DNA of 64,000 nucleotides. Origin: an uncultured Bacilli bacterium (GTDB lineage Bacteria > Bacillota_I > Bacilli_A > RF39 > UBA660). The DNA is taken from NCBI GenBank assembly GCA_934099115.1, contig CAKOPK010000006.1, positions 372-64,371 on the forward strand, read 5' to 3'. A program made the translations under genes and the position numbers. The notes beneath the pieces were generated by a model. That model was not told the origin of the DNA. It did not search any database and was given only the letters and a program-made list of their open reading frames with translations. Shown here piece by piece: positions 3,084-62,526 of the stretch (positions are counted from its first letter, which is position 1; the number at the start of each line of letters is the position of its first letter).

Positions 3084-3098
3084 AATATTCCTTTCCAT

Positions 3099-4917: not shown

Positions 4918-5046
4918 AATTTCTAGATGAAGCAGATCAAATTTTTAAAAATATAATTTAAAATATTTTTTGTGTGCAATAATTTAAAAATCATTGTACT
5001 TTTTTCTTTTTATATAAATATGAACTTTCCTATAAGATAAAAAACG

Positions 5047-6460
<1,414 letters not shown>

Positions 6461-12127: not shown

Positions 12128-12470
12128 TACTTTCCTCATTGATTTCTTTAATAATATGCTCGATACGATTACCATATTCTATAGAATCATCATATACAAA
12201 TTCTAAAATTGGTGTATGTCTTAAATCTATTTTAGCAGATACTTTTCCTCTTATAAAAGGAGCAGCTTCATTAACTTCTTTTACAAGAGTCTTTTTATCT
12301 AAAGAAGACATAGATGTAAAGTATACTTTCGCATAACTTAAATCTCTAGATACTTTACATCCTGTAATAGTTATTGTTTTTAATAACTCATCCCTAGCTT
12401 CATCAAATAATATCTCACTAATTACTCTGCTTAAATCAGCAGATATCTTGGCAATTTTATGACTAGGCAT
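12117..12470 (-). CDS. rbfA: Ribosome-binding factor A
   Basis: The sequence (ITITGCKVSRDLSYAKVYFT, PILEFVYDDS) and the position after infB. Confidence 0.93.
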   Translation of the reverse strand: MPSHKIAKISADLSRVISEILFDEARDELLKTITITGCKVSRDLSYAKVYFTSMSSLDKKTLVKEVNEAAPFIRGKVSAKIDLRHTPILEFVYDDSIEYGNRIEHIIKEINEESNEN

Positions 12471-14587
12471 TATTTAGTGCCCCCATTTTTAACTTCTACC
12501 ATTTCATAACATTCAATCGTATCCATTTCTCTAATATCACTATAATTTTCTAGAGTTATACCACATTCATATCCTTTTTTAACTTCTTTAACACTATCTT
12601 TTTCTCTTTGAATAGATGCAATTTTACCATCATAAATAATTACACCATCACGTATTAAACGAGCCTTAGCATTATTCTTAATAATACCATCTGTTACATA
12701 AGAACCAGCAATATTTCCTACTTTAGAAAACTTAAATATTCTTCTAATCTCTGCTGTTCCTAATACTTTTTCTTCAAATTCTGGGTCTAATAAACCTTTC
12801 ATAGCAAGTTCTATTTCTTCAATACATTTATAAATAATCGTATATAAACGAATATCTACCCCGTATTCTTTAGCCATTTCTTTCGTATTATTGCTTGGAC
12901 TAACATTAAAACCAATAATAATAGCATTTGATGCATTAGCAAGTATAACATCACTCTCTGTAATAGTTCCAATACCAGAACGAATAATGTTTATTTTAAC
13001 TCCTTCAACATCTATTTTTAATAAACTATTCTTAACAGCTTCTTCACTACCACGAACATCAGTTTTTAAAACAATATTAATCTCTTTTTGACCCTCTTTA
13101 ATCTTATTAAACAAATCATCTAAAGATATAGTATCTTTTTTAAACTTATTCTCTTTCTTATGAATTTCTCTCTTAAGAGCTACTTCTTTTGCTTCTTTTT
13201 CTGTCTCAAAAGCCATAAACTTATCTCCAGCACTTGGATTATCATTTAAACCTGTAATTTCTACTGGAGTACCAGGTAAAGCTTGTGTAATTGGTTCTCC
13301 TAAATCATTTTTCATCGTTCTAACACGTCCATAAGTAGTTCCAACTACAATTGGGTCTCCAATACGTAAAGTACCATTTAATATTAAAAGACTTGCTACT
13401 CCTCCAATATTTTTATCTTGACGAGACTCAATTACAGAACCAACAGCATAACGATTAGGGTTAGCTTTTAATTCTTTCATCTCACTAATTGCTAAAATTG
13501 TTTCTAATAATTTATCAATACCTTCTCCAGTATGAGCAGAAATATTAATAAATGGATATTCTCCTCCCCAAACTTCTGGAGTAATTCCTATCTCGGCCAT
13601 TTCTGTCATAATACGATCTGGATTAGCTTCTGGTTTATCAATCTTATTAACTGCTACAATAATTGGTACTTTGGCACTTAAAGCATGATCTACTGCTTCT
13701 TTGGTTTGAGGCATTACTCCATCATCAGCCGCTACAATAATAATAACAATATCCGTTACACTAGCTCCTCTAGCACGCATTTCAGTAAAAGCCGCATGTC
13801 CAGGAGTATCAATAAATGTAATCTTATTACCATGATTAACAATCTGATAAGCTCCAATCGCTTGAGTAATTCCTCCAAATTCTGTATCTACAACATGTGA
13901 ATTACGAATATAATCTAAAAGTGTTGTTTTTCCATGATCAACATGACCCATAATTGTAACAATCGGAGGACGTACTTCTAAATCCTCTTCTTTATCAATA
14001 ATTTCATATTCTTCAAAATTAGATACATCTTGAGTTTCTTCTCTTTTTAGAGTTTTATTATATTCTAAAGCTATAATCTCCGCATTTTCAAAATCAATTG
14101 TTTGATTTAATGATAACATTAAACCAAAAGCCATTAACTTCTTAATAATGTCAGTTCCACTTATTTCTAATAAAGAAGCTAAATCTCCTACTGTCATTCC
14201 ATCTTTAAATAAAATAACATTCTCTTGTTCCTTATTCTTCATTAATTTATTCTTATTTTTATACATTTCTTTTCTTAATTTAGAATAATCTTTTGCATCT
14301 GTCTGGTCTTTCTTCTTCTTTAATTTTTGTTTTTTATCCGTAGTATTAATTGTTTTAGCCATATTACTGCTTTCTACAATTGCATCTACTACTTCATCAA
14401 TTGTGTCTTCTTCTTCAAAAGAATCCTCTTCAACACCAATTAAATTAATAGCATTATCTAATGATATAATATCCTCATCACTTAAATAATCATCACCAGT
14501 CTTTACTTCTATCCCTAAATCTATACATTTTTTAAGAATTTCTGCAACACTTAAATTGACATCATTTGCGTATTCTTTGATAGTCAT
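12470..14587 (-). CDS. infB: Translation initiation factor IF-2
   Basis: GTPase motifs [20 protein letters not shown] and NKID, plus the conserved C-terminal domains. Confidence 0.97.
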
Positions 14588-26257: not shown

Positions 26258-26968
26258 TTACATATGAAATAAATTCATTTGTCCTTCTAATTCTTTATCA
26301 ATCTTTTTTTCATTCCATTCTTCTAACTTTTCTCTTTCACTTCCACTTAAACGTTGAGGCTTTATCTCCGTTATGGTTTCTTTTACTTGTTTCCTTCGTG
26401 GATTTAAAAGATAATAAGTTATCATCGCAACATCATATAATGAACGATACTTTGGTGTTTTTTTGCCTTTATTCATATAATAACAATAACTATTTAAAAA
26501 AGCAGTTACACGGTCAAAAAAAATATAATCAGGAACACTATTATTATAAGCACTTCTAAGTTCATAGTATGCTTCCGGATTATAATTTCTGTTATTTAAA
26601 TAAGATAAAAAGCCTCTCATAAACTTATCATTATTCTGATTCTTAGTTATAATACTTGCTAAATTACTAATCTTAAAATAAGTCTCATAACCTCTAGTAG
26701 GCACATTAATATCTTTTATAAAACCATTTCTTAAATAAATAATCTTTAATTCTAAATCCTTTTGTTCTTTTTTTAAAACATCCTGATGAATTAAAAATTC
26801 TTTTAAAGTTTGTATATCTTGAAAACTCATAGTAAAAGTGCATAATTCTCTTAAATTATTATCTTTAATTAAAGAATTATGAATGTTTTTTAATTCTATA
26901 TAATTAAATCTCACACTATTCCTATAAATATTCCCTTTATCAACTGCTAAATAATACTTCATAACCAT
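26258..26968 (-). CDS. Hypothetical protein (unknown family); the C-terminus ends ...EGQMNLFHM
   Basis: Long ORF that overlaps the upstream gene by 10 nt. No domain recognised. Confidence 0.6.
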   Translation of the reverse strand: MVMKYYLAVDKGNIYRNSVRFNYIELKNIHNSLIKDNNLRELCTFTMSFQDIQTLKEFLIHQDVLKKEQKDLELKIIYLRNGFIKDINVPTRGYETYFKISNLASIITKNQNNDKFMRGFLSYLNNRNYNPEAYYELRSAYNNSVPDYIFFDRVTAFLNSYCYYMNKGKKTPKYRSLYDVAMITYYLLNPRRKQVKETITEIKPQRLSGSEREKLEEWNEKKIDKELEGQMNLFHM

Positions 26969-27570
26969 CCCTCTTGCTTATTATATCCCGTTTCATCAAG
27001 TTTATCAATCCATAATGCTTTTAAGACTGCTTGCTCTTTTAAATCATGAGTTATTTCACTAAGCTTTTTTAAATATTCTAACTTAAAATTATCTGTTTCT
27101 AAATAAGTTATAATAATATTCTTTAAAAATAAAGTTTCATCAAAATATAAAGAACATTCTTGATTTCCCATTTTTAATACCCAATTTATAAATAAATCTG
27201 CATCTTCTAAAGTTCCAAGAGAATTTCTAAATAAATAATAAACAATAGAATTTAACTCATAAATATTAAATACTTCTTGTAAAATAATCTTTCTAACAGA
27301 AGAATTAACCTTCTTTATGTATTTATCCAAAAATAAATACCCTTCTTTCCTTAAAATATCCTCTGGATAGTTTTTTAAAAGAAAAGTAAAATCAATATTA
27401 TTTCTTAAATCTAATATAGAAGTTTCATTTAAAATCTGAACCCATATAGTAATACCTTTTTTAGAATTAAGTTTCTTTAATAAAGAATAGATAGCTTCTA
27501 CATCACTATCATATTCTATATTATATCTTATATTTTCTAGCAAATTTAATACATAATTCTCTAATTGCAT
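26959..27570 (-). CDS. Hypothetical protein (unknown family)
   Basis: Long ORF. The start is moved to MQLENYVL, because the track extension to 27645 is hydrophobic junk without an RBS. No domain recognised. Confidence 0.55.
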   Translation of the reverse strand: MQLENYVLNLLENIRYNIEYDSDVEAIYSLLKKLNSKKGITIWVQILNETSILDLRNNIDFTFLLKNYPEDILRKEGYLFLDKYIKKVNSSVRKIILQEVFNIYELNSIVYYLFRNSLGTLEDADLFINWVLKMGNQECSLYFDETLFLKNIIITYLETDNFKLEYLKKLSEITHDLKEQAVLKALWIDKLDETGYNKQEGWL

Positions 27571-27690
27571 ACGTCTATCACCTACCACAATTTTATCATA
27601 TATAGGCACAAATGTAAAATAATATGCATATAAACTCCAAAACACTTATACAATACATTTTTTTGAGAAAATTAATAAAGGTGAGTAAAT

Positions 27691-28143
27691 ATGCAGTTCA
27701 AAAGAATGAAAGAACTAAGAGAAGAAGCAGGTTTAAAACAAAAAGAAGTCGCAGACGCTATGGGTGTTACAAAAGGTTCTTATAGTATGTGGGAATGTGG
27801 TACAGACACTATCCCTCTAAGAAGATTAAATCAATTTTGTAACTATTTTGGTGTATCAATCGATTACGTAGTAGGGCTTAGTGATAAGAAGAAGTATGCG
27901 AATGCAAAACCAGATATAAAATTAAAAATAACTGGAGAAAATTTAAAGAAAATCAGAAATAAGAAAAACTTAACTCAAGTAGCTATCTCTGATACTTTAA
28001 ATATTAATCAACCTACATGGAATAGATACGAAAAAAGTAGAACTCTAATATTAACTGTAACTTTAGTAGAACTTGCTCGTAAATATCATTATTCTATTGA
28101 TAAAATCTTAGGCAAAGATAAAGAAAACGATAGTAAAGATTAA
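27691..28143 (+). CDS. XRE-family transcriptional regulator with two tandem HTH_3 domains
   Basis: The HTH pattern appears twice: LKQKEVADAMGVTKGSYSMWECG and LTQVAISDTLNINQPTWNRYEKS. It is divergent from the two unknown genes. Confidence 0.88.
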   Translation: MQFKRMKELREEAGLKQKEVADAMGVTKGSYSMWECGTDTIPLRRLNQFCNYFGVSIDYVVGLSDKKKYANAKPDIKLKITGENLKKIRNKKNLTQVAISDTLNINQPTWNRYEKSRTLILTVTLVELARKYHYSIDKILGKDKENDSKD

Positions 28144-29865: not shown

Positions 29866-31203
29866 TTAATCTATAATCTTACTTACTTGTGCATCTACAC
29901 TACCATCATGTAAACGAACATGTATAACATCATTTACTTTTAAATCTTGACTACTTTTAATAAGTTTATCATCCACTGTTACTAAAGAATAACCTTTTTC
30001 TAATATACCTAAAGGATTTACTAATTTCAATGTATTAACAAGTATCTTATAATTATGATCATTCTCCATAATAATTCTCTTAATATTTTGATATAAGTTA
30101 TTCTTTGATAATACTAATTTTTCCTGTTTCATATTAAATAATTGAAATGGATTTTTTAAAATATAGGAATTTCTTAAATTAAGTAATTGTAACTGATAAT
30201 TATCTAATCTTTTAGTTATATTATTATTTAAAGTTTCCATTAAATTATCCAATTTTTGTTCCTTTAATTCATATAAAGAAATTGGATTTTTTAAGATATA
30301 AGAACTACTAGCATTCTCTAATCTTAACCTTGCTTTATGTAAATAATTACTCATAAATTCATTCATTCTAATTTTATAAGTATCTAACATATGAACAATT
30401 TCATTTACTGTAGGAACTGCCATCTCTGCTGCTCCTGTTGGCGTTGGAGCTCTAAGGTCTGCTACAAAATCTGCAATTGTATAATCTATTTCATGACCAA
30501 CAGCACTTATAATAGGTACATTTGCTTCATAAATAGCTCTCGCTACTACTTCTTCATTAAAAGCCCACAAGTCTTCAATAGAACCTCCCCCACGTCCTAC
30601 AATTAAGACATCTAAGTTATACTTACCACTATCCGCTTCTTTTATTTGTTTTACAATATCTAAAGCCGCATTCTCTCCTTGCACTAACGCTGGAAATAAA
30701 ACAGTTTCACAAATAGGAAATCTTCTCTTAACAGTAGAAATAATATCTCTAATCGCTGCTCCTGTTGGAGCCGTTATAATTCCTATCCTTTTTGGTATTT
30801 TAGGTATTTTTTTCTTATGTTCATCATTAAATAATCCCTCTAAAGCTAGTTTTTTCTTTAATTTTTCATATTCTACATATAAATTACCTAATCCGTCAGG
30901 TTCCATACTATCTACATAAATTTGATAAGTTCCTTGAGCTGGATAACAAGATATTCTTCCGCTTACAAGCACATTCATTCCATCTTCTGGAGCAAACTTT
31001 AAAGTAACCGCACTAGAATAAAACATAACCGCACTTATTCTAGAAGCATCGTCTTTTAAAGTAAAATATAAATGTCCTCTCGTATGATTTTTAAAATTAG
31101 AAATTTCTCCTCGTAAATAAACTCTTCTTAAATGAACGTTTTCATCAAACATATTCTTAATATAAGTATTTAAATCACTAATCTTAATATATTCTTTATC
31201 CAT
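29866..31203 (-). CDS. xseA: Exodeoxyribonuclease VII large subunit
   Basis: OB-fold N-terminus (VYLRGEISNFKNHTRGHLYFTLKD), and GRGGGSIEDLWAFNEE. Confidence 0.95.
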   Translation of the reverse strand: MDKEYIKISDLNTYIKNMFDENVHLRRVYLRGEISNFKNHTRGHLYFTLKDDASRISAVMFYSSAVTLKFAPEDGMNVLVSGRISCYPAQGTYQIYVDSMEPDGLGNLYVEYEKLKKKLALEGLFNDEHKKKIPKIPKRIGIITAPTGAAIRDIISTVKRRFPICETVLFPALVQGENAALDIVKQIKEADSGKYNLDVLIVGRGGGSIEDLWAFNEEVVARAIYEANVPIISAVGHEIDYTIADFVADLRAPTPTGAAEMAVPTVNEIVHMLDTYKIRMNEFMSNYLHKARLRLENASSSYILKNPISLYELKEQKLDNLMETLNNNITKRLDNYQLQLLNLRNSYILKNPFQLFNMKQEKLVLSKNNLYQNIKRIIMENDHNYKILVNTLKLVNPLGILEKGYSLVTVDDKLIKSSQDLKVNDVIHVRLHDGSVDAQVSKIID

Positions 31204-34867: not shown

Positions 34868-35284
34868 TTAATCTTCGTTTTTCAAAATATACTTTGCCTC
34901 AAAATTCCAAATATTTAATCTTCCTCTAGCTAATATTGGATAAATTGGTTCAACATCTTCTAAAATCCAAGCATATCTTCCCAGTTGATAGTCTCCTAAA
35001 TTATACTCTTGCAAATCTTCTGCTATATTTTTCAAAAAATCTACATTCATATAAATACAATCAATTAAATTACACCTACAAATAATACTACCATAACTCA
35101 TATCTAAATTTTTAACGATTTTTTTTAAATACTTATTTTCTAAAGTTTGCTTACTTATACTTTTACAACTAGCATGAATAAATAATTCCCCACGATAATT
35201 AGTTTTCCAACTTCGCGTTTCAATTCTCTTAAACCCTTCAGCTATCAATGTTGCATATGGCTCTCTAATACTAATTACTTTCAC
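34868..35284 (-). CDS. ASCH domain-containing protein
   Basis: MKVISIREPYATLIAEGFKRIETRSWKTNYRGELFIHA is typical of the ASCH/PUA-like family. Confidence 0.8.
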   Translation of the reverse strand: MKVISIREPYATLIAEGFKRIETRSWKTNYRGELFIHASCKSISKQTLENKYLKKIVKNLDMSYGSIICRCNLIDCIYMNVDFLKNIAEDLQEYNLGDYQLGRYAWILEDVEPIYPILARGRLNIWNFEAKYILKNED

Positions 35285-35422: not shown

Positions 35423-35449
35423 TAAAAAGAGAATACTTAAATATTCTCT
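35423..35449 (-). terminator. Rho-independent terminator of the ABC transporter operon
   Basis: 8-bp stem AGAGAATA / TATTCTCT whose loop contains the permease stop codon, followed by a T-run on the minus strand. Confidence 0.65.
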
Positions 35450-37935
35450 TCTCTTAAAGACTCTAAAATATTATCATTCTTTATTCTTTTAGAAGCATAA
35501 TACATTGTAATAAGAATAATAATAAAGACGCCCACAATTGTAATAGCAAAACTCTTAATTGGAAGTCCCCTAACATCTACCACTCTACTAAAAGAACTTT
35601 TAATTAAGATATTAATAGCATAAGAAACAGGTAAACCATATAGTAAAGATTTTAATCCAAAGAATAAGCTTTCAAAGAATAACAATTTATTAAATCCTCT
35701 TGGAGTTAAACCTACACTACGAAGCATAGCAAATTCTTTTCTTCTTAATTGCATACTTGTATGAATAGTATTAATAACACTAGTAACACCTATCAATGTA
35801 ACTAAAGCAATAAATCCATAAAATAATATTTTTAAAGCTAAAATAACATTTCTAGTATTTTGATTTTCCATCGCAGGACTAACCACTTCATAATCAGAAT
35901 TCAAAGTTATCTTTTTATCTTTAATATCTTTATTAATCTTTTGATATTCTTTAGTATTAAAAATATATCTAGACTCATATTCTGTATTAATTTGTAATTT
36001 ATTATAAACACTTTCTTTTGTAACTATTATAGGAGTTGGCAAATATGTATAAGTTTTAAGTCCCCATACTACATCATTATAAACTTTAGCAGTAAAAGTA
36101 TATTCTTTATCTTGTATATTTAATTTTAAATCATAACTATCTTTTATAAAAGTATTCATAGAAACAGTTTTTCTACCATCTTCTGAATATAAATTATAAT
36201 ATTTAGGGTTCATAATAAAGACATCATCTTTACTATACTTATTATATTCTTTATCTATTAACACAATTAATGTAGCATCAACACTATTATAATTATCACT
36301 GCCTTGATACTTTCTAAAGTCTTTACTAAAATCATCTTTACTTAAATTAATAATATCTACAGGAACAGTATTAACAATTATTAAATCTTTACTTATAGAA
36401 TAATTATTAGCAATTGTTTTAATATCTTCTTCTATAATAGAATAATCTTTATTATATAATTGAAATCTAACATCAAAATCTGTATAAGAAATATTACTAG
36501 AACCTTCCTCAATATAATCTAAATAAGTAGTAAAAGTATTAAACATAACAATACTAATAAATAAACTAATAATAGTAATACGATATTTCTTTTTATTTCT
36601 CTTAATATTTTTATAAGCAATAACTCCTTCCATGCCAAATAGTTTAGCTATAAATCTAGGTGTTTTTACTTCTTTTTTAGATATTTTAATATCATCATTA
36701 CCTCTTATAGCTTCAATCGGAGTAACTTTACTTGCTCTTAAAGCTGGCAAATAAGCACTAATTAAAATAACTAAAACCATAAATATTAAAGGAATAATAA
36801 TATATAAAGGCTTTACATAAAATACTAAATCAAAAGTAGGAATTCCCTGTAATAAATGTTTTAATAATAAGATAACTACATAAATACCTATAAATCCTCC
36901 AAGTATACCTAATAAAATACCTATAAGTCCTACTATAAAAGCTTCAAATAAAACTGTTTTTTTAAGTTGTTTATTAGTAGCTCCAATAGAAGAATATAAT
37001 CCAAAGCTCTTCTTTCTCTCACTTGTAGATATAGCAAATGAATTATATATAACTGTAATACATCCCACACTTATAACAGATAAAGCAATAATAATTAAGG
37101 GTAAGAATGCCTTATTAACATTATCATATTTACTAGCTCCAAAAAAATATAAATAATTTTGATTAATAACATAATCATCATTACTAATATTTAAATTACT
37201 TGCAATATCACTCGTTAATTGATAAGTATCTTTTGGTTTTTTATATTCTACAAATAAATTATATTTACCATTTAATTCATTATCTAAAGTAAAAGTCATA
37301 TAACCTGCAGCATTATATTCTTCATATACACTAGATTCTATAATGCCTACTATCTTATAAGTTTTAGTAGTTATTTCTTGAAATTTCTCTGGTATAATCT
37401 CATAATTATCATCATAACTTAAACCTTCATCGATATTCAAATTTAGAAGTGTATCATCTACAATTCTATTCCCTATTTGTAAAGTAACAGTATCTCCTAC
37501 TTTAAATTTTGCTTTTTCTTCTTTAATTAAAGAATTACTAATAACTATTTCTTCATTAGTTTTTGGTAATCTTCCTTCCACTAATTTTAAAGTATCTAAA
37601 AAATTTTGGTTAGCACTAGCAATATATAAATATGGTTTTGAAATAATTCCATTTTCTATTTTAGCATATCCAACACCCTTATACCAATAACTATTATCTA
37701 TATTAATATTCTTTCTAATTGTATTTAAAGTATCAGTATTAACATTCTTAAATTCTACATGATAAGTTCCATATTCACTCTCTACTTCTAATAACATAGT
37801 TTTATATAGACTAGAAATTAAAAGTCCAATACCTACCATTAAAGCTGTAGATAAAAGAATACCAATAATAGTTACTAAAGTTCTCTTTTTATTCATTTTA
37901 AGATGTTTAATAGTAAGTTTATTTAAAATATTCAT
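35437..37935 (-). CDS. ABC transporter permease with two FtsX-type modules (MacB/BceB-like)
   Basis: 832 aa. It has an N-terminal TM segment, large extracytoplasmic regions and two 3-4-TM FtsX-like blocks. The start overlaps the ATPase stop by 4 nt. Confidence 0.85.
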   Translation of the reverse strand: MNILNKLTIKHLKMNKKRTLVTIIGILLSTALMVGIGLLISSLYKTMLLEVESEYGTYHVEFKNVNTDTLNTIRKNINIDNSYWYKGVGYAKIENGIISKPYLYIASANQNFLDTLKLVEGRLPKTNEEIVISNSLIKEEKAKFKVGDTVTLQIGNRIVDDTLLNLNIDEGLSYDDNYEIIPEKFQEITTKTYKIVGIIESSVYEEYNAAGYMTFTLDNELNGKYNLFVEYKKPKDTYQLTSDIASNLNISNDDYVINQNYLYFFGASKYDNVNKAFLPLIIIALSVISVGCITVIYNSFAISTSERKKSFGLYSSIGATNKQLKKTVLFEAFIVGLIGILLGILGGFIGIYVVILLLKHLLQGIPTFDLVFYVKPLYIIIPLIFMVLVILISAYLPALRASKVTPIEAIRGNDDIKISKKEVKTPRFIAKLFGMEGVIAYKNIKRNKKKYRITIISLFISIVMFNTFTTYLDYIEEGSSNISYTDFDVRFQLYNKDYSIIEEDIKTIANNYSISKDLIIVNTVPVDIINLSKDDFSKDFRKYQGSDNYNSVDATLIVLIDKEYNKYSKDDVFIMNPKYYNLYSEDGRKTVSMNTFIKDSYDLKLNIQDKEYTFTAKVYNDVVWGLKTYTYLPTPIIVTKESVYNKLQINTEYESRYIFNTKEYQKINKDIKDKKITLNSDYEVVSPAMENQNTRNVILALKILFYGFIALVTLIGVTSVINTIHTSMQLRRKEFAMLRSVGLTPRGFNKLLFFESLFFGLKSLLYGLPVSYAINILIKSSFSRVVDVRGLPIKSFAITIVGVFIIILITMYYASKRIKNDNILESLREENI

Positions 37936-38621
37936 GACTTATCTCCTAAACGCTCATCAGCAATAATATGTCCATCTTCTACAGTAATAATTCTTTTCGC
38001 ATGTAAAGCAAGTTCTCTATCATGAGTAATCATAATAATAGTTTGGCCATATTTTTCATTCGATAATTCTAATAATTCCATAATTTCAGCACTAGACTTA
38101 GAATCCAAATTACCAGTAGGTTCATCGGCTAAAAGTAAAGCAGGATGATTCATTAATGCTCTTCCAATAGATACTCTTTGTTGTTGTCCTCCAGATAGTT
38201 CATTAGGAAGATGGTTTACTCTTTTTGTTAACCCTAAAGTATTTATTAATTCTTCTAAATAGTTTAAATCTGGTTTTTTTCCATCTAATAAAACCGGTAA
38301 AGTTATATTCTCTTTAACATCTAATATTGGTATTAAGTTATAAAATTGATAAATTAACCCTACTTCTCTTCTTCGAAATATAGCTAAATTAGTTTCATTT
38401 AATTTATAAATATCTTTATCATTAATAAAAACTTGTCCACTAGTGGGTCTATCTACACCTCCCAAAATATGTAAAAGAGTTGATTTACCTGAGCCAGACG
38501 CTCCAATAATAGCTACAAAATCCCCCTTTTCAATACTAAAACTTATGTGGTCTAAAGCTTTTACTTCTATATTACCAGTCTTATAAGTCTTACATAAATC
38601 TTTAACTTTTAATATTTCCAT
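37932..38621 (-). CDS. ABC transporter ATP-binding protein (MacB/BceA-like)
   Basis: GASGSGKSTLL, LSGGQQQRVSIGRAL, LLLADEPTGNLD. Confidence 0.95.
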   Translation of the reverse strand: MEILKVKDLCKTYKTGNIEVKALDHISFSIEKGDFVAIIGASGSGKSTLLHILGGVDRPTSGQVFINDKDIYKLNETNLAIFRRREVGLIYQFYNLIPILDVKENITLPVLLDGKKPDLNYLEELINTLGLTKRVNHLPNELSGGQQQRVSIGRALMNHPALLLADEPTGNLDSKSSAEIMELLELSNEKYGQTIIMITHDRELALHAKRIITVEDGHIIADERLGDKS

Positions 38622-38661: not shown

Positions 38662-38699
38662 GTGACTTTAAAATGACTTTTATATTACAATTTAGTCAC
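38662..38699. promoter_or_regulatory. Candidate response-regulator binding site upstream of the ABC operon
   Basis: Direct repeat TGACTTT-N4-TGACTTT (38663-38680), plus inverted partners GTGACT (38662-38667) / AGTCAC (38694-38699). The site is 40-80 bp upstream of the ATPase start codon. Confidence 0.4.
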
Positions 38700-38730
38700 A
38701 TTTATTATAAACTACAAATTAAAAAAGAGC

Positions 38731-38755
38731 AAAAAAAAGAAGAAAAAATCTTCTT
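38731..38755 (-). terminator. Rho-independent terminator of paralog A
   Basis: Stem AAGAAGA / TCTTCTT overlapping the stop codon, followed by a long T-run on the minus strand. Confidence 0.6.
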
Positions 38756-40091
38756 AAGAAACTATATAGGGATTAGAACTAGTACCAGATCCTCCTGAAA
38801 AAATAGTGTCTGCTTTTAGATTAATTACAGGACGGACCCCCCGCACTCTGTCATCTACAGCACCAGCACCAAAGAGACCAGAAGAATATACAAGAAATTC
38901 ACCTGTTGGAGCTGCTACATTTGGATTAAAGTAAAATGGTGACATAGTCCAGTAATAACCACCTGTATATAAATAATAACCTGAGTTATTTGTTGCATAT
39001 ACTCCTCCTGCATATACAACTTCATCGGCTGTTATTAAGCCTACTGGTGTTGTAAATTTGTCTTCTGTGTCTACACATTTCAGAGTTGGTGTTTTATTAA
39101 ATATTAATCTTACATATGGAGCATAAAATGTTAGGGTATTACCAGTTCCTCCACTTCCGTTTATGTTATGTTCACTAGTACTAGGTGTTCTATCATTACA
39201 GAAATTTGCTCCTCCTCCGGTTGCTATACTACTTGCATAATTACTTAAGGCATTATTATACCAATTGTCCAGTACTTCTTTGATGGTACTATTTGTTCCT
39301 TTCCCATGCACTTGATTATTAGTATATTGGTATCCTACATACATGTTGTTGTTATAACTACTATTAAATGCACTCGTTCCTATTTGTGTGCCTGTTCCAG
39401 TTGTATTGGCGCTGGTTCCTTGATAAATCATTCGGATTGTTCCATCGCCATTGATTCTGATTATTCTCCAATAGAATCCTCCAAACTTTACCCAGTTATC
39501 GCTTGGATTTCCTGCAAAATAATAAGTTTCTCCATAGTCATCATACTGAGTACTATTTAAAGACTTATAAATGACTCCTGTTGTTGTATCAGTCACAATT
39601 GAATCAAAATTAGACCTGGTTTTCCATGTGTTCATGTTTGCCATTATAGCTTCACAAGAGACTCCTTTACATGTATATGGCTTTTTATCAAAATACAAAT
39701 AACACTTCGTTCCTTTAGTAGTTAGATTATCTAATAAAATCTTACCATTACTATAATTAAAAGTAATAGAATAATCTCTATTTCCATTTACTGCACAATA
39801 ACTTTTATCAGAATTTAAATTATAACCACTTTGTGGTACTGTATCTGTTCCTTTATACGTTCCATTATCTTCAATATACATAGATACTAAATTTAAATCT
39901 GGAACTGTATAATTAATAGTTCCTCTAGCTAGTTCAATACTTTGTGTAGTTCTATACTTAGCTCTAGAAGTTAATTGTACTACCGTTACAATTACTGCTA
40001 TAAACACTAATAAAATTCCTCCATACTTCTTTAACTCATTTCTTTTTAATGTTTCTATTTTCATTTCTCTAACCTCTCTTAGAATTCTCAT
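38754..40091 (-). CDS. Membrane-anchored extracytoplasmic protein of unknown function, paralog A
   Basis: N-terminal TM segment (GGILLVFIAVIVTVV). Conserved blocks are SRAKYRTTQSIELARGTINYTVPDLNLVSMYIEDNG, NWVKFGGFYWRIIRINGDGTIRMIY, GLITADE, YWTMSP and GVRPVINL. An alternative start is MKIETL at 40064. Confidence 0.8.
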   Translation of the reverse strand: MRILREVREMKIETLKRNELKKYGGILLVFIAVIVTVVQLTSRAKYRTTQSIELARGTINYTVPDLNLVSMYIEDNGTYKGTDTVPQSGYNLNSDKSYCAVNGNRDYSITFNYSNGKILLDNLTTKGTKCYLYFDKKPYTCKGVSCEAIMANMNTWKTRSNFDSIVTDTTTGVIYKSLNSTQYDDYGETYYFAGNPSDNWVKFGGFYWRIIRINGDGTIRMIYQGTSANTTGTGTQIGTSAFNSSYNNNMYVGYQYTNNQVHGKGTNSTIKEVLDNWYNNALSNYASSIATGGGANFCNDRTPSTSEHNINGSGGTGNTLTFYAPYVRLIFNKTPTLKCVDTEDKFTTPVGLITADEVVYAGGVYATNNSGYYLYTGGYYWTMSPFYFNPNVAAPTGEFLVYSSGLFGAGAVDDRVRGVRPVINLKADTIFSGGSGTSSNPYIVS

Positions 40092-40209
40092 ACCTTATAC
40101 TAAAATTATATTATCAAGAATACTGAAAGTCAAGAAAAATGTCGTATATTTATACCTATTTATAACAATAATATTAATTAATGAGAAAATATGCTCAGGT
40201 GAATAGAAA

Positions 40210-40665
40210 ATGATTTATAATAAACGATTAAAAGAATTAAGAGAAAGATATGGAATTCCCCAAAAAGAACTAGCTAATTTAATTAATGTAAAACGTCCTG
40301 TATATACACAATATGAAAATGAAAATGTAACAATACCTTTAATCCACCTAATAACAATTTGTGATTATTTTAATGTATCTTTAGATTATATATTTAATTT
40401 TACAGAAATAAAAAACTATCCAGAAAGTAAAAAAGAAATAAACAAATTAGAAGCTGGCCAAAACTTAAAAACTTTTCGTAAAGAAAACAAAATTACTCAA
40501 AATCAACTTGCCAATATCTTAAATACTACTCATTCTGTAATAAGTGATTATGAAAGAGGAAGATATTTAATTAATACATCTTTTTTATACGCAATCTGTT
40601 TAAAATATACTATCTCTGCTGATTATCTAATTGGCAGAACTAAAAATATTTCTCCTGAAAAATAA
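40210..40665 (+). CDS. XRE-family regulator with two tandem HTH_3 domains (paralog of 27691-28143)
   Basis: IPQKELANLINVKRPVYTQYENE and ITQNQLANILNTTHSVISDYERG. It has the same 150-aa two-HTH layout as the regulator at 27691. Confidence 0.88.
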   Translation: MIYNKRLKELRERYGIPQKELANLINVKRPVYTQYENENVTIPLIHLITICDYFNVSLDYIFNFTEIKNYPESKKEINKLEAGQNLKTFRKENKITQNQLANILNTTHSVISDYERGRYLINTSFLYAICLKYTISADYLIGRTKNISPEK

Positions 40666-40667
40666 AA

Positions 40668-40696
40668 TCCCTCGAATCAAAATCGAGAGATTTTTT
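40668..40696. terminator. Bidirectional terminator between convergent genes
   Basis: Stem CTCGA / TCGAG (extendable with one mismatch), flanked by an A-run and a T-run. Confidence 0.55.
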
Positions 40697-40701
40697 ATAA
40701 A

Positions 40702-42039
40702 TCAAGTCACTACATAAGGGTCTAATGCAGTACCTAAACCAGTAAACTGAATATCTTTTCTTAAATTAATAACCGGTCTAACACCGTTTCCACCATGTGC
40801 ATAAGGTGCACCTATTGCCCCACTTAAAGTCATATAAAAAACAAGGGCATAACCATAAGTATCAAAAATGCATGGAGACATACTCCAAGAAGTCTTGTTA
40901 TTATACAAATAATAATTTAAATTGTTAATCTGATTGACCCCACCAGCATAAGCCATTTCATCAACTGTAATTAGACCTATGGGAGTATCTATTCTATCAT
41001 TTATATCTACACAATTAAATATTGGATTTTTATAAACATCTAATCTTAAATGGGGAGCATAATAAGTTAAAGTCTTCCCCGTTCCTCCTGTATTATTTAA
41101 AGAACTATCATTTGTAGAGGGTTGTCTGTCATTACAGAAAGTTGCTCCCTCACCAGTTGCTATATAACTTGTATAGCCACTTAAATTGCTACTATACCAA
41201 TTATCAAGCGCTTCTTTAACAGCACTATTTGCTCCTCTACCATGGACTTCTCCATTTGTATATTGAAACCCTACATACATATTATCATTAGCTAAAGCAC
41301 TAGCAAAAGCACTCTCTCCTATTTGAGTAGTCTCTCCTGTTTGATCTGTCGTTGGTCCATTATAAATCATTCTAATAGTACCATCGCCATTTATTCTGAT
41401 AATTCTCCAATAATATCCTCCAAACTTTACCCAATTGTCTGTTGGTGCTCCTGCAAAATAATAAGTTGCTCCATAATCATCATATTGAGTACTATCTAAT
41501 GATTTATAAATAACCCCTGAAGTTGCATCAGTAAGTGCTATTGAAAAGTCATTTCTCGTTTTTATGGTATTGATATTAGCCAAAATTGATTCGCACGAAA
41601 TTCCATTACATTGATAACTATCAAAATATAAATAACATTTTGTTCCTTTTTTACCTAAGCCATATACATTTATTAATTTATTTTCATAGCCAAAAGTTAT
41701 AGAACTATCTTTATTTCCATTTACTGCACAATAACTTTTATCTTGGTTTAATTTATAACCATTTGATGGAACTGTATCACTTGCCTTATATTCTCCATTA
41801 TCTTCAATATACATAGATACTAAATTTAAATCTGGTACTGTATAATTAATTGTTCCTCTTGCTAGTTCAATACTCTGTGTAGTTCTATACTTAGCTCTAG
41901 ATGTATTAAAAATTAATAAGGTAAGAAGCATAACTCCACATATAATTCCTATATAAAAATACTTTTTCTTTTTTTCAAAAGCATAAAATCTTAACTTTTT
42001 CATTCTTAAAACTCCTTCATTTATTCTAATGCAAGCCAC
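40702..42039 (-). CDS. Membrane-anchored extracytoplasmic protein of unknown function, paralog B
   Basis: Same length (445 aa) and same conserved blocks as paralog A. An alternative start is MKKLRF at 42003. Confidence 0.8.
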   Translation of the reverse strand: MACIRINEGVLRMKKLRFYAFEKKKKYFYIGIICGVMLLTLLIFNTSRAKYRTTQSIELARGTINYTVPDLNLVSMYIEDNGEYKASDTVPSNGYKLNQDKSYCAVNGNKDSSITFGYENKLINVYGLGKKGTKCYLYFDSYQCNGISCESILANINTIKTRNDFSIALTDATSGVIYKSLDSTQYDDYGATYYFAGAPTDNWVKFGGYYWRIIRINGDGTIRMIYNGPTTDQTGETTQIGESAFASALANDNMYVGFQYTNGEVHGRGANSAVKEALDNWYSSNLSGYTSYIATGEGATFCNDRQPSTNDSSLNNTGGTGKTLTYYAPHLRLDVYKNPIFNCVDINDRIDTPIGLITVDEMAYAGGVNQINNLNYYLYNNKTSWSMSPCIFDTYGYALVFYMTLSGAIGAPYAHGGNGVRPVINLRKDIQFTGLGTALDPYVVT

Positions 42040-42142
42040 ATTCTAATTGTGATTTAAATATAACACAGAGCAGCCACATTGTCAATGTTGTTTTTAAAAT
42101 AAATTTAATGATTGTTGATATAATGCAAAAGAGGTAAAAGTT

Positions 42143-42364
42143 ATGGAATTTAAAGCAAACAATTATAAACCAAACGATATTTTAAAATTTATACGTCAAA
42201 GTACAGGTAAAACCCAAAAAGAATTTGCTCAAACTATAAATAAATCTGAAAACTGGCAATTTTGCAATGAAAAAGGAATATCTAATTATTACTTTAAAGA
42301 CCTTTTAGATTTAGCAAATTACTACAACATTGAAATTATAATCAAAGAAAAAAATACTAACTAA
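42143..42364 (+). CDS. Small XRE-family HTH protein
   Basis: KTQKEFAQTINKSENWQFCNEKG is an HTH-like segment; 73 aa. It is divergent from paralog B. Confidence 0.65.
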   Translation: MEFKANNYKPNDILKFIRQSTGKTQKEFAQTINKSENWQFCNEKGISNYYFKDLLDLANYYNIEIIIKEKNTN

Positions 42365-43545
42365 ATAGTATCTTTTTTATGCATAAATATAATTTTAAAC
42401 TCTGTATATTCCCCTTCTTTACTAGTAACTTCTATCTTTCCATTTTCTTTTTCAATAATAAGTTTAGCCATATTTAAACCTATACCAAAACTATTTTTTG
42501 AAGAATCAGTTGTATAAAATCTCTTAAATATATTCTTAATTTCTTTCTTAGAAATACCTAATCCATTATCTTTTATAGAAATACTATTATAAATAGGGTT
42601 ACATTCCCCTTCTATAGTAATAACTCCTCCATAATTTACGTGTTCATAAGCATTCTTTAATATATTCATTAAAGCTTCTTTAGTCCATTTAATATCACAA
42701 ATAACATCAAAGTCTAAATGCTTATATTCTAGATAAATATTTTTTAATTCCATTGGTATTAATAAAGATTCCAAAGACTCTTCTATAAGACAACTAGCCT
42801 TTATTCTCTCTTCTTTTAAAAGAATAGAACCACTATCTAATTTACTATATTTTAATAAAGTTGTAATTAACCATTCCATTTTTTCTAATTCTCTAGACTG
42901 TTTATTTAAAAAATCTGTTCTTTCTTCATAAGTTAATTCATTATTCTTTAATATATCATTAATAACCATTAAAGCAGTAAGAGGAGTTTTTAATTGATGT
43001 GAAATATCTTCTAAAGTATTCATCAAATATACTTGTTCTCTTCTTTCATATAAACTTAAATCTTTTAACTTAATTGCTACTTTATAAATATCATTTTTTA
43101 ACACTGATATCTCATCTTCTTGATAATCTTGAAAATTAAGTCCATAGGTCCCACTTAATATTTGATTTAAATATGAATTAATAGTATTTATTTCTTTTTT
43201 TATTTTTCTCTTAGAAATTCCAAAGATAATAAAAAATCCTAATAAAAACATTAAAAATAAACTTAAATTAATAAATATAGTTTTATCTCGAACTTCTCTA
43301 TAATTTTTAAACTCTTTTAAAGTATTTTCATTAATACCATAAGTCTTCAAAAACTTATGATTTTTATTTTCATCTAACAAAGAATCTATAATAATTTCTT
43401 CTGTATCTGGATATTTTTCTAAAATATTTCCTATAATATTTGAATTTGTATCAATAATATATTCTTGATATTGTTTTACAATATATAAATTAGCTAATAA
43501 AACAATAAAAAGAGAACAACATATATAACCAATTATCTTTTTCAT
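42361..43545 (-). CDS. Sensor histidine kinase (two TM segments, about 70-aa extracellular loop)
   Basis: H-box SHQLKTPLTAL, N-box NILKNAYEH, G-box DNGLGI...GIGLNMAK. Confidence 0.92.
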   Translation of the reverse strand: MKKIIGYICCSLFIVLLANLYIVKQYQEYIIDTNSNIIGNILEKYPDTEEIIIDSLLDENKNHKFLKTYGINENTLKEFKNYREVRDKTIFINLSLFLMFLLGFFIIFGISKRKIKKEINTINSYLNQILSGTYGLNFQDYQEDEISVLKNDIYKVAIKLKDLSLYERREQVYLMNTLEDISHQLKTPLTALMVINDILKNNELTYEERTDFLNKQSRELEKMEWLITTLLKYSKLDSGSILLKEERIKASCLIEESLESLLIPMELKNIYLEYKHLDFDVICDIKWTKEALMNILKNAYEHVNYGGVITIEGECNPIYNSISIKDNGLGISKKEIKNIFKRFYTTDSSKNSFGIGLNMAKLIIEKENGKIEVTSKEGEYTEFKIIFMHKKDTI

Positions 43546-44213
43546 AACACTAATTTATAACCCATTCCTCTAACTGTTAAAATAACTTTCGGATTACTAG
43601 GGTCATCCTCTATTTTTTCTCTAATTCTCTTCATATAAACTGTAAGAGTATTATCATTAACATAAGCTTCTTCTGTATCCCAAATACTTGCTAAAATGTT
43701 TTCTCTTGTAAATACTTTATTAGGATTTTGAAATAAAATTAATAATATCTTATATTCTAATGCTGTTAATAGTATTTTCTCCTCATTTTTATATACACTA
43801 GCATCTTTAGTATTTAAACGAATATTTTGTACTTGTAAAATATCACTATTAAAAGAATTACTTCTTCTTAAAACAGAATGAATACGAGAAATCAATTCTC
43901 TAATTTTAAATGGTTTTGTAATATAATCATCCGCTCCCAATTCTAAAGCTTCTACAATACTAGCTTCTAAATCATTAGCAGTCAAAAATATAGTAGGAAT
44001 ATCTCTTTCTTGTCTAATTTCTTTAAATAATTGAGTTCCATTAATATCAGGCAAATTAATATCTAAAATCATCAAATGAACCGTATTATCTTTTAATATT
44101 TCTAAAGCTTTATTCCCTGATGAAGCACATAATATTTGATACCCTTCTTTTTCTAAACAAAACTTTAATCCATCTAAAATAATATCCTCATCTTCTACTA
44201 AAAGTAAAGTCAT
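43542..44213 (-). CDS. OmpR-family response regulator
   Basis: MTLLLVEDEDI...DINLPDING receiver domain, and the winged-helix C-terminus TVRGMGYKLV. Confidence 0.93.
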   Translation of the reverse strand: MTLLLVEDEDIILDGLKFCLEKEGYQILCASSGNKALEILKDNTVHLMILDINLPDINGTQLFKEIRQERDIPTIFLTANDLEASIVEALELGADDYITKPFKIRELISRIHSVLRRSNSFNSDILQVQNIRLNTKDASVYKNEEKILLTALEYKILLILFQNPNKVFTRENILASIWDTEEAYVNDNTLTVYMKRIREKIEDDPSNPKVILTVRGMGYKLVL

Positions 44214-44265
44214 AAAAACCTCCAAAAAAAGTATATCACGAAACAAAAGAATATTCTATTACAAT

Positions 44266-60473: not shown

Positions 60474-60857
60474 CTATAAACTTTGATTATGTTTAATAAA
60501 TTCTCTTAATACTTTAGTAAGAGCTCTTTTCTCTATTCTAGAAACATAGCTTCTGGATATATGTAAGTTCTTAGCAATCTCTTTTTGTGTTTGTTCTTCT
60601 TCATTTAATAAGCCATATCTTTTTACTAATATTTCTTTTTCTCTACTAGTAAGAACTTTCAAATATTCTTTTAATCTTCCAATATTTTCCTGATTATGAA
60701 TTAAATCAGAAACATCTAATCCATCATCTTTAATAACTTCCATCAAACTAATCTCATTACCATCTTTATCATAACCAATAGAATCATTTAAACTAACGGT
60801 AATTCCACTTTTCTTATTACTACGAAAATACATCAAAATTTCATTTGCAATTGTCAC
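60474..60857 (-). CDS. sigK: 3' segment of split sigK (spoIIIC equivalent): sigma-K regions 3-4 only
   Basis: ...IANEILMYFRSNKKSGITVSLNDSIGYDKDGNEISLMEVIK...SREKEILVKRYGL...EQTQKEIAKNLHISRSYVSRIEKRALTKVLREF aligns, from memory, with B. subtilis SigK from ...CIENEILMHLRALKK to the C-terminus. An in-frame TAG lies immediately upstream. There is no RBS and no region 1-2. Confidence 0.85.
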   Translation of the reverse strand: MTIANEILMYFRSNKKSGITVSLNDSIGYDKDGNEISLMEVIKDDGLDVSDLIHNQENIGRLKEYLKVLTSREKEILVKRYGLLNEEEQTQKEIAKNLHISRSYVSRIEKRALTKVLREFIKHNQSL

Positions 60858-62526
60858 CTAATGGAAACTCAGTCATCTTAGCAGATTCTCTTGTTCCAGT
60901 AAGATTAAGTATCAAGTTTTCACCATCACTGTATGCAGATGATATTACTAATTTTATAAGCGTCCTTTTTTGTAATAAATCTAATTTGTTAAATTTATTG
61001 AAATATGAGTCAATTATATCAAGAACTATTTTAGCGTTTTCTGTATCGTCAATAATTGATGTTTTATCAATATTTAATTTTTTTACTTGTTCTTCAAGTT
61101 CAACATTAGCACCTTTAAGTTTTTGTATTTCCTTTGCTAAATCTGGTACTATATTTGCAGGAACCATTTTAATTTTATCAATTAGTGAAGCAATGTCTTT
61201 TTCGTTGTTTTTAATTTTCTTAGTTAAAGTATATAATTCATTTGACTTGGTATCTAATTTATTTAATTTACCACTTGCTAGGTCTTTTAATGCTTGATAG
61301 TATTCTCCTTTTGGATTTGCTAAACTTTTAATTACTTCTACTACTTTTTTATCGGCTTTATTTCCATTAAGGTTTTTATGATCACATTTGGTTCTTCTAC
61401 TTTTATCTTTTAATTCACATAAGTAAGAGAATCTTAATTCACCATCAACTTCACTTTGATATAGTTTAGGTCTCATAAAACTACCACAGTAACTACATTT
61501 AAGGATTCCGGATAATAATGCATTATTAACGGCTGGTTTTCTAAATCTTTTATTAGCACCTGATGCAAGTAAATTTTGTACTTCAACGTATTCTTTGCCA
61601 GTCCAGAATCCTTTATGTTTTCCAATAGCAACAATCCATTCGGAAATGGGATTATCATTTCTTCCTTTTTTTGTTATTTGGTTTGTTTTATTATATACCA
61701 TTAATCCGAATTTTCCGTTGTAATCTTTTTTATCTCCAACTACTAATGCTCCTTTTTCGGTGAAATAATCATAAGCATCAGAATCAGCCATTGAATAAAC
61801 TGGATTAGATAATATATTAACTAATGACCATCTAGTGAATATTCTGCCATTTTTAGTTTTTATATTATTTTGAATAGTATATGTTTCAAGCCCAGTTTGT
61901 GATTTTATTTCTAAATATTTGTCTTTAAGTAGATTTACAATTAATTTTTCTTCTGGAAGTTCTTTTAATTTGAAAAGTTTCTTTTTTTTGCCATCAATGG
62001 ATAAATTTTGTACTTCTTGAGATTTAAATCCAGTAGGAGGAGTACCTCCAAGCCATCTTCCGGTTTTTGCAAGTTCCATCATATTGTCTCTTATTCTTTC
62101 GGCTATAGTATCTCTCTCAAGTTGTGCAAATACCGAACATATTAGCATCATTGCTTTTCCCATGGGTGAGGTAGTATCAAAATCTTCTCTTATTGAAACA
62201 AATCCAACATTAAATGCTTGTAATTCATTTATTAAATTACAAAAGTCGCCAACATTTCTACTAACTCTATCTAATCTGTAGCAAGTAACTGAAGCAACTT
62301 TGTTTTCTCTGATTAAGTTCATCATCTTTTGAAAATCAGGTCTATTTGTATTAGCACCTGTAAATCCTTCGTCTGTAAAAACTTTAATATCTTCCTCTTT
62401 CAAATCAGGATATTTAGCTAATAGTTTTTGTTTGCACAAATCAACTTGATTTTCAACACTTTCTCCTTTTCCGGTGTACTTTGATTTACGACTATAAATA
62501 ATATGCCATCTATTTAATTCTTTCAT
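60841..62526 (-). CDS. Large serine recombinase (SpoIVCA-like, presumed sigK-element excisionase/integrase)
   Basis: N-terminal resolvase domain (IIYSRKSKYTGKGESVENQ, VTCYRLDRVSRN), a recombinase domain, a zinc ribbon (CSYCGSF...C...C) and a coiled-coil tail. Its stop codon lies inside the sigK junction. Confidence 0.92.
   Translation of the reverse strand: MKELNRWHIIYSRKSKYTGKGESVENQVDLCKQKLLAKYPDLKEEDIKVFTDEGFTGANTNRPDFQKMMNLIRENKVASVTCYRLDRVSRNVGDFCNLINELQAFNVGFVSIREDFDTTSPMGKAMMLICSVFAQLERDTIAERIRDNMMELAKTGRWLGGTPPTGFKSQEVQNLSIDGKKKKLFKLKELPEEKLIVNLLKDKYLEIKSQTGLETYTIQNNIKTKNGRIFTRWSLVNILSNPVYSMADSDAYDYFTEKGALVVGDKKDYNGKFGLMVYNKTNQITKKGRNDNPISEWIVAIGKHKGFWTGKEYVEVQNLLASGANKRFRKPAVNNALLSGILKCSYCGSFMRPKLYQSEVDGELRFSYLCELKDKSRRTKCDHKNLNGNKADKKVVEVIKSLANPKGEYYQALKDLASGKLNKLDTKSNELYTLTKKIKNNEKDIASLIDKIKMVPANIVPDLAKEIQKLKGANVELEEQVKKLNIDKTSIIDDTENAKIVLDIIDSYFNKFNKLDLLQKRTLIKLVISSAYSDGENLILNLTGTRESAKMTEFPLGDNCK

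Follow-up and report, generated by a model that had tools for sequence, protein, structure and literature searches.

Two adjacent gene modules lie between positions 38754 and 42364 of a 64,000-nucleotide stretch of DNA from an uncultured Bacilli bacterium (hereafter the window), each consisting of a gene for a putatively exported protein, A or B, and a divergent gene for a small helix-turn-helix (HTH) regulator of the XRE type. We find that A and B belong to the DUF6273 superfamily (DUF, domain of unknown function), which has a C-type-lectin-like fold, and that the pairing of such a gene with an XRE gene is a conserved two-gene module and not a chance adjacency. Taken together, the data point, in our judgement with somewhat better than even confidence, to a ligand-binding protein that is expressed under the control of a repressor and varies at its tip through paralogy, recombination and, in some genomes, a diversity-generating retroelement (DGR). 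A first-pass annotation of the same DNA had presented the genes as tandem paralogues of unknown family and as a candidate for an undescribed system; they turn out instead to be two members of a family that numbers more than 10,000 clusters, within a known, uncharacterised Pfam superfamily that has a solved relative.

The coordinates (38754-40091 and 40702-42039) and minus strand reported for the two tandem open reading frames (ORFs) check out, and their products are paralogues with 60% identity across the full length (E = 6e-176). The equal length of 445 amino acids (aa) remarked upon in the first-pass annotation is a coincidence of ORF calling: promoter positions, ribosome-binding sites and homologue starts place the likely starts at M10 in A, which is also where the homologue P0001 begins (MKIETLK), and at M13 in B, so that the proteins become 436 and 433 aa long. 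All the shared motifs listed earlier were found again, YYFAG..NWVKFGG.YWRIIRINGDGTIRMIY, FCNDR.PS, GLIT.DE and GVRPVINL being common to both proteins, but YWTMSP of A reads SWSMSP in B, the sole motif deviation; the C-terminal ends are ...NPYIVS in A and ...DPYVVT in B. A GC excess that had been noticed by eye is real (0.31-0.33, against 0.21-0.25 in the immediate neighbours, the ATP-binding cassette (ABC) ATPase gene apart at 0.29), but housekeeping genes, for example ProRS, XFP and PBP, have a GC content at least as high. The excess sits mainly at codon position 2 (0.41-0.43, compared with 0.22-0.37 in other genes measured), and therefore reflects amino-acid composition and not foreign origin.

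Neither A nor B could be assigned directly, since they match nothing in Pfam, NCBIfam, PHROGs, PADLOC or the sequences of the PDB. A homologue search gave at least 6,700 matches, all unnamed, some of which carry a precomputed PF19789 (DUF6273) assignment, and 33 of 55 relatives that are 52-79% identical to A matched PF19789 when scanned singly (best E = 1.4e-6). An AlphaFold model of A built with the alignment of these 55 relatives (mean predicted local distance difference test, pLDDT, 86.2; predicted template-modelling score, pTM, 0.77) has a single significant Foldseek match in the PDB, 9qa6, the immunoglobulin A (IgA) peptidase of Thomasclavelia ramosa (E = 3.9e-5, probability 1.0, 300 columns). 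The part matched is the DUF6273 N-terminal domain of that enzyme, at a sequence identity of 17%. Against a viral structure library the top matches are gut-phage DUF6273 proteins (E = 2.5e-5 to 1e-3, probability 1.0). Because the relatives match PF19789 and the fold matches DUF6273 domains, the window proteins are members of the DUF6273 C-type-lectin-like superfamily, though they fall below the Pfam model; the link to DUF6273 offered in the first-pass annotation is thereby borne out at superfamily level, by sequence as well as by fold. Searches of A and B for an enzyme or adhesin family, or for a defence model, gave no match, the Foldseek list for A contains no formylglycine-generating enzyme or other catalytic fold related to C-type-lectin-like domains (CTLDs), and a profile search of PDB sequences with the alignment A1 returned only chance Fab matches and did not reach the sequence of the IgA peptidase (IgAse).

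DUF6273 has been described as a C-lectin-like, DGR-diversified receptor-binding domain with its variable region at the C-terminal end (PMC10743442, PMC11792537, bioRxiv 10.1101/2024.10.15.618418). The IgAse N-terminal domain has a double-sized CTLD core with a structural zinc held by Asp, His and Cys (D78/H90/C126, with 36 residues from His to Cys; PMC12237041), and it is not needed for IgA cleavage (PMC12237041, PMC12402451).

The family is large. At E <= 1e-3 our family profile retrieves 10,686 clusters (represented at 50% identity), a number that falls to 3,313 at E <= 1e-30, and a single relative can have up to 12 tandem modules. Two-module forms of about 720 aa occur among family members, and the representative library holds two giant relatives, P0121 and P0122, of 3,528 and 4,905 aa with 8 and 12 modules of about 300 aa. 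Among species-representative genomes the relatives are almost all found in uncultured gut metagenome-assembled genomes (MAGs) bearing names such as 'Mycoplasma sp. CAG:776', 'uncultured Tenericutes' and 'uncultured Bacilli', with at least 9-11 genes per MAG, these copy numbers being lower bounds. The window encodes a penicillin-binding protein (PBP) that carries a PASTA domain, and SpoIIGA/sigma-E-like and YunB genes are present on contigs of close relatives; the host is therefore a low-GC, walled and probably spore-forming member of the Bacilli, as opposed to a true mycoplasma. Among the uncultured orders in this part of the tree some species have a wall and others do not, and sortases are missing from two of these orders (PMC10868615).

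A starts with a basic head and a single hydrophobic helix. Next come a juxtamembrane motif that is conserved, a small beta domain containing a pair of Cys residues, and a DUF6273-type C-type-lectin-like head of about 300 aa. In the model the helix spans residues 19-42, as expected from the basic head and single hydrophobic helix first described; it is followed by a linker of low confidence (42-66), the small beta domain (69-136) and a large alpha/beta domain (144-445), mostly with pLDDT >90. The juxtamembrane motif falls within the linker and is unstructured in the monomer model despite its near-invariance in the family; between A and B its non-synonymous divergence (dN) is 0 and its synonymous divergence (dS) 0.28. 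Direct reading of both sequences agrees with the earlier statement that there is no LPXTG sorting signal and no lipobox, the leader of A having no Cys and the single one in that of B (IICG) lying outside a lipobox context. The description of the proteins as surface-anchored is less secure. A conserved T/S-R-A↓K-Y after the helix meets the -3/-1 rule of signal peptidase I, and cleavage and release are therefore as possible as anchoring in the membrane. Across the family H262, C298, D300, R301 and C339 (A numbering) are invariant or nearly so, and by analogy with the IgAse N-terminal domain H262, C298, D300 and C339 might form a metal site.

Each family gene in the window has a divergent HTH partner, as had been noted: a 151-aa double-HTH protein beside A (XRE2) and a 73-aa single-HTH protein beside B. 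The latter lies below the Pfam threshold (HTH_3, E = 0.049; phrog_8 of PHROGs, E = 0.003) and was recognised with an HTH profile that was derived from regulators found at related loci; its closest relative, at 4883-5218 of locus L020, is likewise paired with a family gene. Matches of the XRE proteins in PADLOC are to generic HTH models. We called ORFs in 80 related loci and searched them for family and HTH genes with profiles built for the purpose. A first count, limited to family genes for which no less than 700 bp of sequence is available upstream, found a divergent HTH gene within 600 bp in 62 of 86 cases and a same-strand HTH gene in none of the 86. With a cleaner gene set a divergent HTH gene stands at 65/91 family genes against 5/638 other genes (odds ratio 316, Fisher p = 5e-65); the related loci are not phylogenetically independent, so that this p value overstates the pairing, while the effect size is unambiguous. 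Family genes without a partner are mostly the second or third in same-strand tandems. About two-thirds of the regulators are double-HTH proteins of about 150 aa and a third are single-HTH proteins of 65-111 aa, the window containing one of each type.

That the pair behaves as a unit follows from its retention at unrelated sites. Relatives of A with about 70% identity occur at three other chromosomal sites, between the ThiF and GpsA genes, a HipA_C-like gene and DnaE, and a ferredoxin and a pseudouridine synthase gene, and the divergent double-HTH gene is kept at all three, which brings the A-type pair to four unrelated sites in all; the BceRS-like/BceAB-like surroundings in the window are therefore incidental. 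Conservation of the XRE association, which the first-pass annotation had raised as a question, is thus well established. Double-HTH regulators have a median identity of 48%, compared with 34% for their partner proteins, and their second HTH domain is especially conserved, which fits a shared DNA target.

Both family genes in the window are preceded by near-consensus promoters (Table 1). The promoter element of A occurs once in the window and is 100% identical in a sister strain (locus L086), and its conserved core, TTCTTGAC, is found in 36 of 49 double-HTH modules from other genomes. Their spacers have a common order: ATTTTTCTTGACTTT, which includes the -35 box, 17 nt, TATAAT, and then directly a conserved leader of one of three subtypes, for example TATAAGTTAGAAATTTCTAATA or TATAAGCTAGG...CATAGCTTATA. 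In A of the window the promoter element is exact and the leader core reads AGAATTCT, a degenerate form. The divergent spacer of B (42040-42142) contains ACATTGTCAATGT as a candidate regulator-binding site; its palindrome has a chance of 0.04 of finding an equivalent in shuffles and no second exact copy in the window. Among the 18 single-HTH modules, five have palindromes with arms of at least 7 nt over the promoter, against 0.6 expected from shuffles. Cross-regulation between the two modules was considered and rejected, as the B palindrome and the A promoter element are each found only once in the window.

We read these window elements as predicted DNA operators because the leaders of the window genes have no match in Rfam and fold no better than shuffles (z = -0.4 and -0.7). 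The leader subtype TATAAGCTAGG...CATAGCTTATA behaves differently in that it forms a stable 5'-terminal RNA hairpin of variable loop length (-9.7 kcal/mol, z = -5.1). It is the only subtype with a significant hairpin (loci L001, L004, L006, L009, L012, L013, L023 and L064), and this hairpin may be an mRNA stabiliser and not an operator. On the regulator side of the spacer, a further conserved motif, ATGAGAAAAT, precedes the regulator start by 13-30 nt; its frame varies, so that it is not a start codon. At 40181-40213 of the window ATGAGAAAAT opens a mini-ORF of 10 codons (MRKYAQVNRK), the stop of which overlaps the start of XRE2 (ATGA); it is probably incidental, given the varying frame in other loci.

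Where the family varies is well defined. Entropy reaches its maximum (2.0-2.4 bits) at A residues 391-420, in a beta-hairpin whose strands are modelled at 396-401 and 406-411, and indel hotspots fall after A residues 237, 348 and 403. In a relative from a Hadza-derived Bacilli MAG (L077, 10001-13236) we found a complete chromosomal DGR amid housekeeping genes. It follows three tandem family genes without an XRE partner, and the third of these is its target: the variable region (VR; 101 nt, 11176-11276) lies in the 3' end of that gene, the template repeat (TR; 11461-11561) 285 nt downstream of it, and a bAvd-like ORF (11757-12119, E = 5.3e-10) and an RVT_1 reverse transcriptase (12109-13236, E = 4.9e-22) complete the set. 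Every one of the 22 positions at which VR and TR differ is an adenine in the TR (A>G 11, A>T 7, A>C 4). In an alignment with A the VR (aa 392-426) corresponds to residues ~389-422, and the DGR thus rewrites the same hairpin that varies naturally, which is the strongest available evidence that this hairpin is a ligand-contact surface; we propose it as the putative contact surface of the family. In the window itself neither a TR-like repeat of A or B nor a reverse transcriptase of the DGR type is present.

Other routes of variation are seen nearer to the window. At the orthologous locus of the sister strain, identity is 99.5% in downstream housekeeping DNA, 98-100% in XRE2 and 100% both in the promoter and in the final ~240 nt of A, whereas in the interior of A (40095-38996) it is only 46-74%, with indels. 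A divergent interior between near-identical flanks indicates a mosaic allele made by recombination. Within the window, codons 41-100 of A and B show 80-94% nucleotide identity and 83-91% of identical residues use the same codon, while towards the 3' end this same-codon share falls to 23-50%, which points to homogenisation of the 5' portions of the two genes. In a distance tree, family proteins next to single-HTH and double-HTH regulators interleave, and 15 of 18 single-HTH modules have a double-HTH module as their nearest neighbour, which would fit an exchange among copies. The idea of diversification raised in the first-pass annotation therefore gains support from the hypervariable hairpin, the DGR acting on that hairpin in a relative and the mosaic allele.

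These results suggest that each pair would act as a self-contained cassette of a small XRE-type repressor gene and a divergent gene for a Sec-exported binding protein. The protein would consist of the basic head, a helix serving as anchor or as cleaved signal peptide, the constrained juxtamembrane motif, a Cys-bridged beta 'stalk' and an enlarged DUF6273-type lectin-like head. We propose that the head binds a ligand through a contact surface that includes the hairpin between YW.MSP and GVRPVINL, and that this surface is diversified in three ways, by dispersed paralogues, by recombination to mosaic alleles and, in at least one relative, by DGR hypermutation. Transcription would start from a near-consensus sigma-A-type promoter and be held off by the neighbouring repressor, bound to operator-like elements that overlap the promoter or transcription start, and each copy could then be expressed conditionally or in a subpopulation of cells.

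Several observations weigh against this proposal. PF19789 does not match A or B themselves even at E <= 10, and the only solved relative, the IgAse N-terminal domain, is without known function (PMC12237041, PMC12402451). A DGR is present in 1/80 related loci only. Pairwise ratios of dN to dS between A and B range from 0.19 to 0.54 and exceed 1 in no segment, so that positive selection is not detected and no diversifying patches are seen along their alignment, with synonymous sites saturated in the hairpin. The host being walled, a membrane-anchored ectodomain of ~400 aa may not reach the outside. Finally, the operators are predicted from sequence, and in the A module the leader palindrome conserved elsewhere is present only in a degenerate form.

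Among other explanations, a released secreted factor has to be considered. If the helix were cleaved at SRA↓KY, the new N-terminus KYRTTQS...GTINY could mediate assembly, for instance by donor-strand polymerisation of the TasA/camelysin type, or retention by a partner, and the heads would decorate a fibre or matrix. The fit to the -3/-1 rule, the signal-peptide proportions of the n, h and c regions, and the strong purifying selection on a motif that is yet unstructured in the monomer model all agree with this. The same position reads TSYAYYEET in L077 and SYAYFSS in P0051, which by eye we take to resemble SipW-type 'AYFTD' N-termini, although no profile supports it: models of the SipW-cognate signal, TasA and camelysin (NCBIfam, Pfam, E <= 10) match neither A, B and their isolated N-termini nor P0051. 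Moreover, no SipW-like peptidase gene adjoins any module examined, and the double-module relatives (~720 aa) do not have the juxtamembrane motif at all. We consider such an assembling factor rather unlikely. An enzyme, or a wall- or metal-binding maturation factor of the envelope, with H262, C298, D300, R301 and C339 as its catalytic or metal site and the variability incidental, seems to us highly improbable. The near-invariance of these residues is in its favour, and the spacing from H262 to C298 equals the 36 residues between the zinc-binding His and Cys of IgAse (PMC12237041), which is suggestive only, but no enzyme family was matched by sequence or fold, and a hypervariable hairpin and targeting by a DGR are features that mark a binding protein, not an enzyme.

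It is also conceivable that A and B serve against phages or in exclusion, as envelope proteins by which the receptor-binding proteins of phages are blocked or decoyed, under an XRE switch like that of prophage morons and exclusion genes. Gut phages do use DUF6273 as a receptor-binding domain, XRE regulators are common in defence and prophage modules (though the PADLOC matches here are generic), and high allelic turnover is typical of arms-race loci. However, A and B match no PADLOC model. The survey for prophage or integrative and conjugative element contexts that the first pass had called for found none: the modules lie amid housekeeping genes, not in defence islands or prophages, and a single phage contig in IMG/VR carries a relative. 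We regard this explanation as very unlikely.

A bolder extension of repressor-gated ligand binding, which we put forward as speculation and think unlikely, is that the dispersed cassettes together constitute a sortase-independent surface-variation system of uncultured reduced-genome gut Bacilli. Each genome would encode at least a dozen lectin-like proteins under their own repressors, individual cells expressing differing sets of these proteins as bet-hedging or antigenic variation, with tips swapped by gene conversion or DGR. If true, this would represent a repressor-network route to surface variation, unlike the invertible-promoter and slipped-strand switches of Mycoplasma and Bacteroides.

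Comparison with known systems shows what is shared and what is particular to this family. PF19789 proteins, among them phage 'tentaclins' and Mtd-like gut-phage DGR targets, have in common with the window proteins the superfamily, by profile and fold, and the logic of the motifs (W..., LIT.DE, YW.xSP, GVRP). In both, the C-terminal end of the domain is where the variable region lies, and both include DGR targets (here at least one member). In contrast, the window proteins lie below the Pfam model, have a head of ~300 aa, and the combination of N-terminal helix, motif and Cys-bridged stalk is specific to their clade; their genes are chromosomal, multi-copy, XRE-paired and outside phage tails. 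In T. ramosa IgAse (ThomasA, 9qa6) the N-terminal domain likewise has a double-sized CTLD core with irregular decorations and comes, like the window proteins, from low-GC gut Bacillota, but there it is an accessory to a sortase-anchored metallopeptidase and dispensable for catalysis, whereas here it would make up the whole functional head.

TvpA of Treponema denticola and LdtA of Legionella are cellular DGR variable proteins with a C-type-lectin fold; they are lipoproteins and single targets. In them, too, an exported or surface protein of this fold has its C-terminal ligand-binding surface diversified, and L077 has the full VR-TR-Avd-RT set, but most family copies, both in the window included, are without a DGR; their variation comes from paralogy and recombination, and they have a private repressor. 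The Vsp, Vlp and Vsa proteins of Mycoplasma, variable surface lipoprotein families switched by invertible or slippage-prone promoters, resemble the present family in that a small genome carries numerous paralogues, with mosaic alleles and an exchange akin to gene conversion, and in that they come from a related branch of the Bacilli. They show no sequence or fold kinship with it, and a fixed strong promoter with an adjacent HTH repressor takes the place of their switches; no invertase or repeat tract was seen at the family copies. The nearest CTLD-like neighbour of the IgAse N-terminal domain is a bacterial adhesin head that binds host glycosaminoglycans (PMC12237041). It has no sequence kinship with the window proteins either, and the one trace of it in our searches, a DUF1566 match among the viral Foldseek results, is weak and not significant (E = 0.04).

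For DUF6273, the fold and the DGR connection are already known. We found no prior description of the XRE-paired family in the searchable literature, and databases leave its proteins unnamed; what appears to be undescribed there is the chromosomal multi-copy organisation, the private repressor with conserved predicted operators, and the architecture of stalk and motif. DUF6273 is among the commonest diversified binding domains of the gut virome, without known ligand, and its very large cellular branch (the 10,686 clusters above) occurs in uncultured low-GC gut Bacilli, a group with few recognised surface proteins. The private-repressor architecture, the defined DGR-targeted hairpin and the allele replacement between near-identical strains make the family experimentally tractable, and these three features suggest that active diversification is under way at an interface with the host, other microbes or phages. 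A ligand, if found, would help to explain attachment or recognition by these abundant uncultured bacteria, and would provide a function for a large DUF and for the N-terminal domain that T. ramosa IgA protease carries.

The coordinates of the module features are given in Table 1. A predicted terminator hairpin sets the A and B modules apart.

Table 1. Positions in the window of the genes and sequence features of the two modules
Feature	Position	Strand	Remarks
Family gene A	38754..40091	-	ORF 445 aa; likely start M10 at 40064, giving 436 aa
Hypervariable beta-hairpin of A	38826..38927	-	~residues 389-422, between YWTMSP and GVRPVINL; putative ligand-contact region
Juxtamembrane motif of A, RAKYRTTQSIELARGTINYTVPDL	39894..39965	-	residues 43-66; near-invariant in family; possible signal-peptidase site SRA↓KY
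Promoter of A, TTGACT-17-TATAAT	40105..40133	-	near-consensus; inside conserved element TTTTTCTTGACTTT (40126-40139)
XRE2	40210..40665	+	151 aa; two HTH_3 domains, E = 9.6e-25; divergent from A
Predicted terminator hairpin, bidirectional	40664..40694	.	12-bp stem, then T-run; between stop codons of XRE2 and B
Family gene B	40702..42039	-	ORF 445 aa from GTG; likely start M13 at 42003, giving 433 aa
Promoter of B, TTGACA-17-TATATT with TG extension	42057..42085	-	near-consensus
Palindrome ACATTG-N-CAATGT	42076..42088	.	perfect; over -35 of B promoter; candidate operator of 73-aa regulator
73-aa single-HTH regulator	42143..42364	+	divergent from B; locus-derived HTH profile, E = 2.4e-12

The two modules split a BceRS/BceAB-like set of genes (35437-38621 and 42361-44246) that encodes a response regulator, a histidine kinase, an ABC ATPase and an FtsX permease of 832 aa; in the sister strain the gene order is unchanged up to the end of its contig. 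A metagenome scan with the histidine kinase, made to ask whether the modules are an insertion into this set, found relatives at 28% identity only. A possible response-regulator box is formed by GTGACT...AGTCAC repeats upstream of the ABC gene (~38662-38706). A functional tie of the modules to the flanking ABC transporter and two-component system was rejected, as relatives occur in three unrelated contexts. Two further genes of the window were examined as additional copies and discarded. The 445-aa ORF at 29866-31203 is not a paralogue, synteny relating it to a gene of the sister strain that is called Exonuc_VII_L (exonuclease VII large subunit). A third double-HTH gene, at 27691-28143, is 38% identical to XRE2 and has upstream of it a TTGAGAAAAT motif like that of the module regulators; it is not a further module, since its partner is not a family gene. 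The two ORFs divergent from it (26959-27645 and 26258-26968) encode cytoplasmic proteins of unassigned function, and the product of 26258-26968 has no Pfam match.

Between the permease and RecO genes lies a strain-variable islet, occupied in the window by a gene for a 138-aa ASCH-domain protein (34868-35284) and in the sister strain by one for a 445-aa AAA_14/DUF4143 ATPase (L086:5721-7058). An AAA_14/DUF4143 gene resembling the latter is found elsewhere in the window, at 1842-3098. Towards the other end, positions 60474-62526 hold a large serine recombinase gene (Resolvase, Recombinase and Zn_ribbon_recom domains) with an overlapping HTH-containing ORF, and this region may be the edge of an integrated element.

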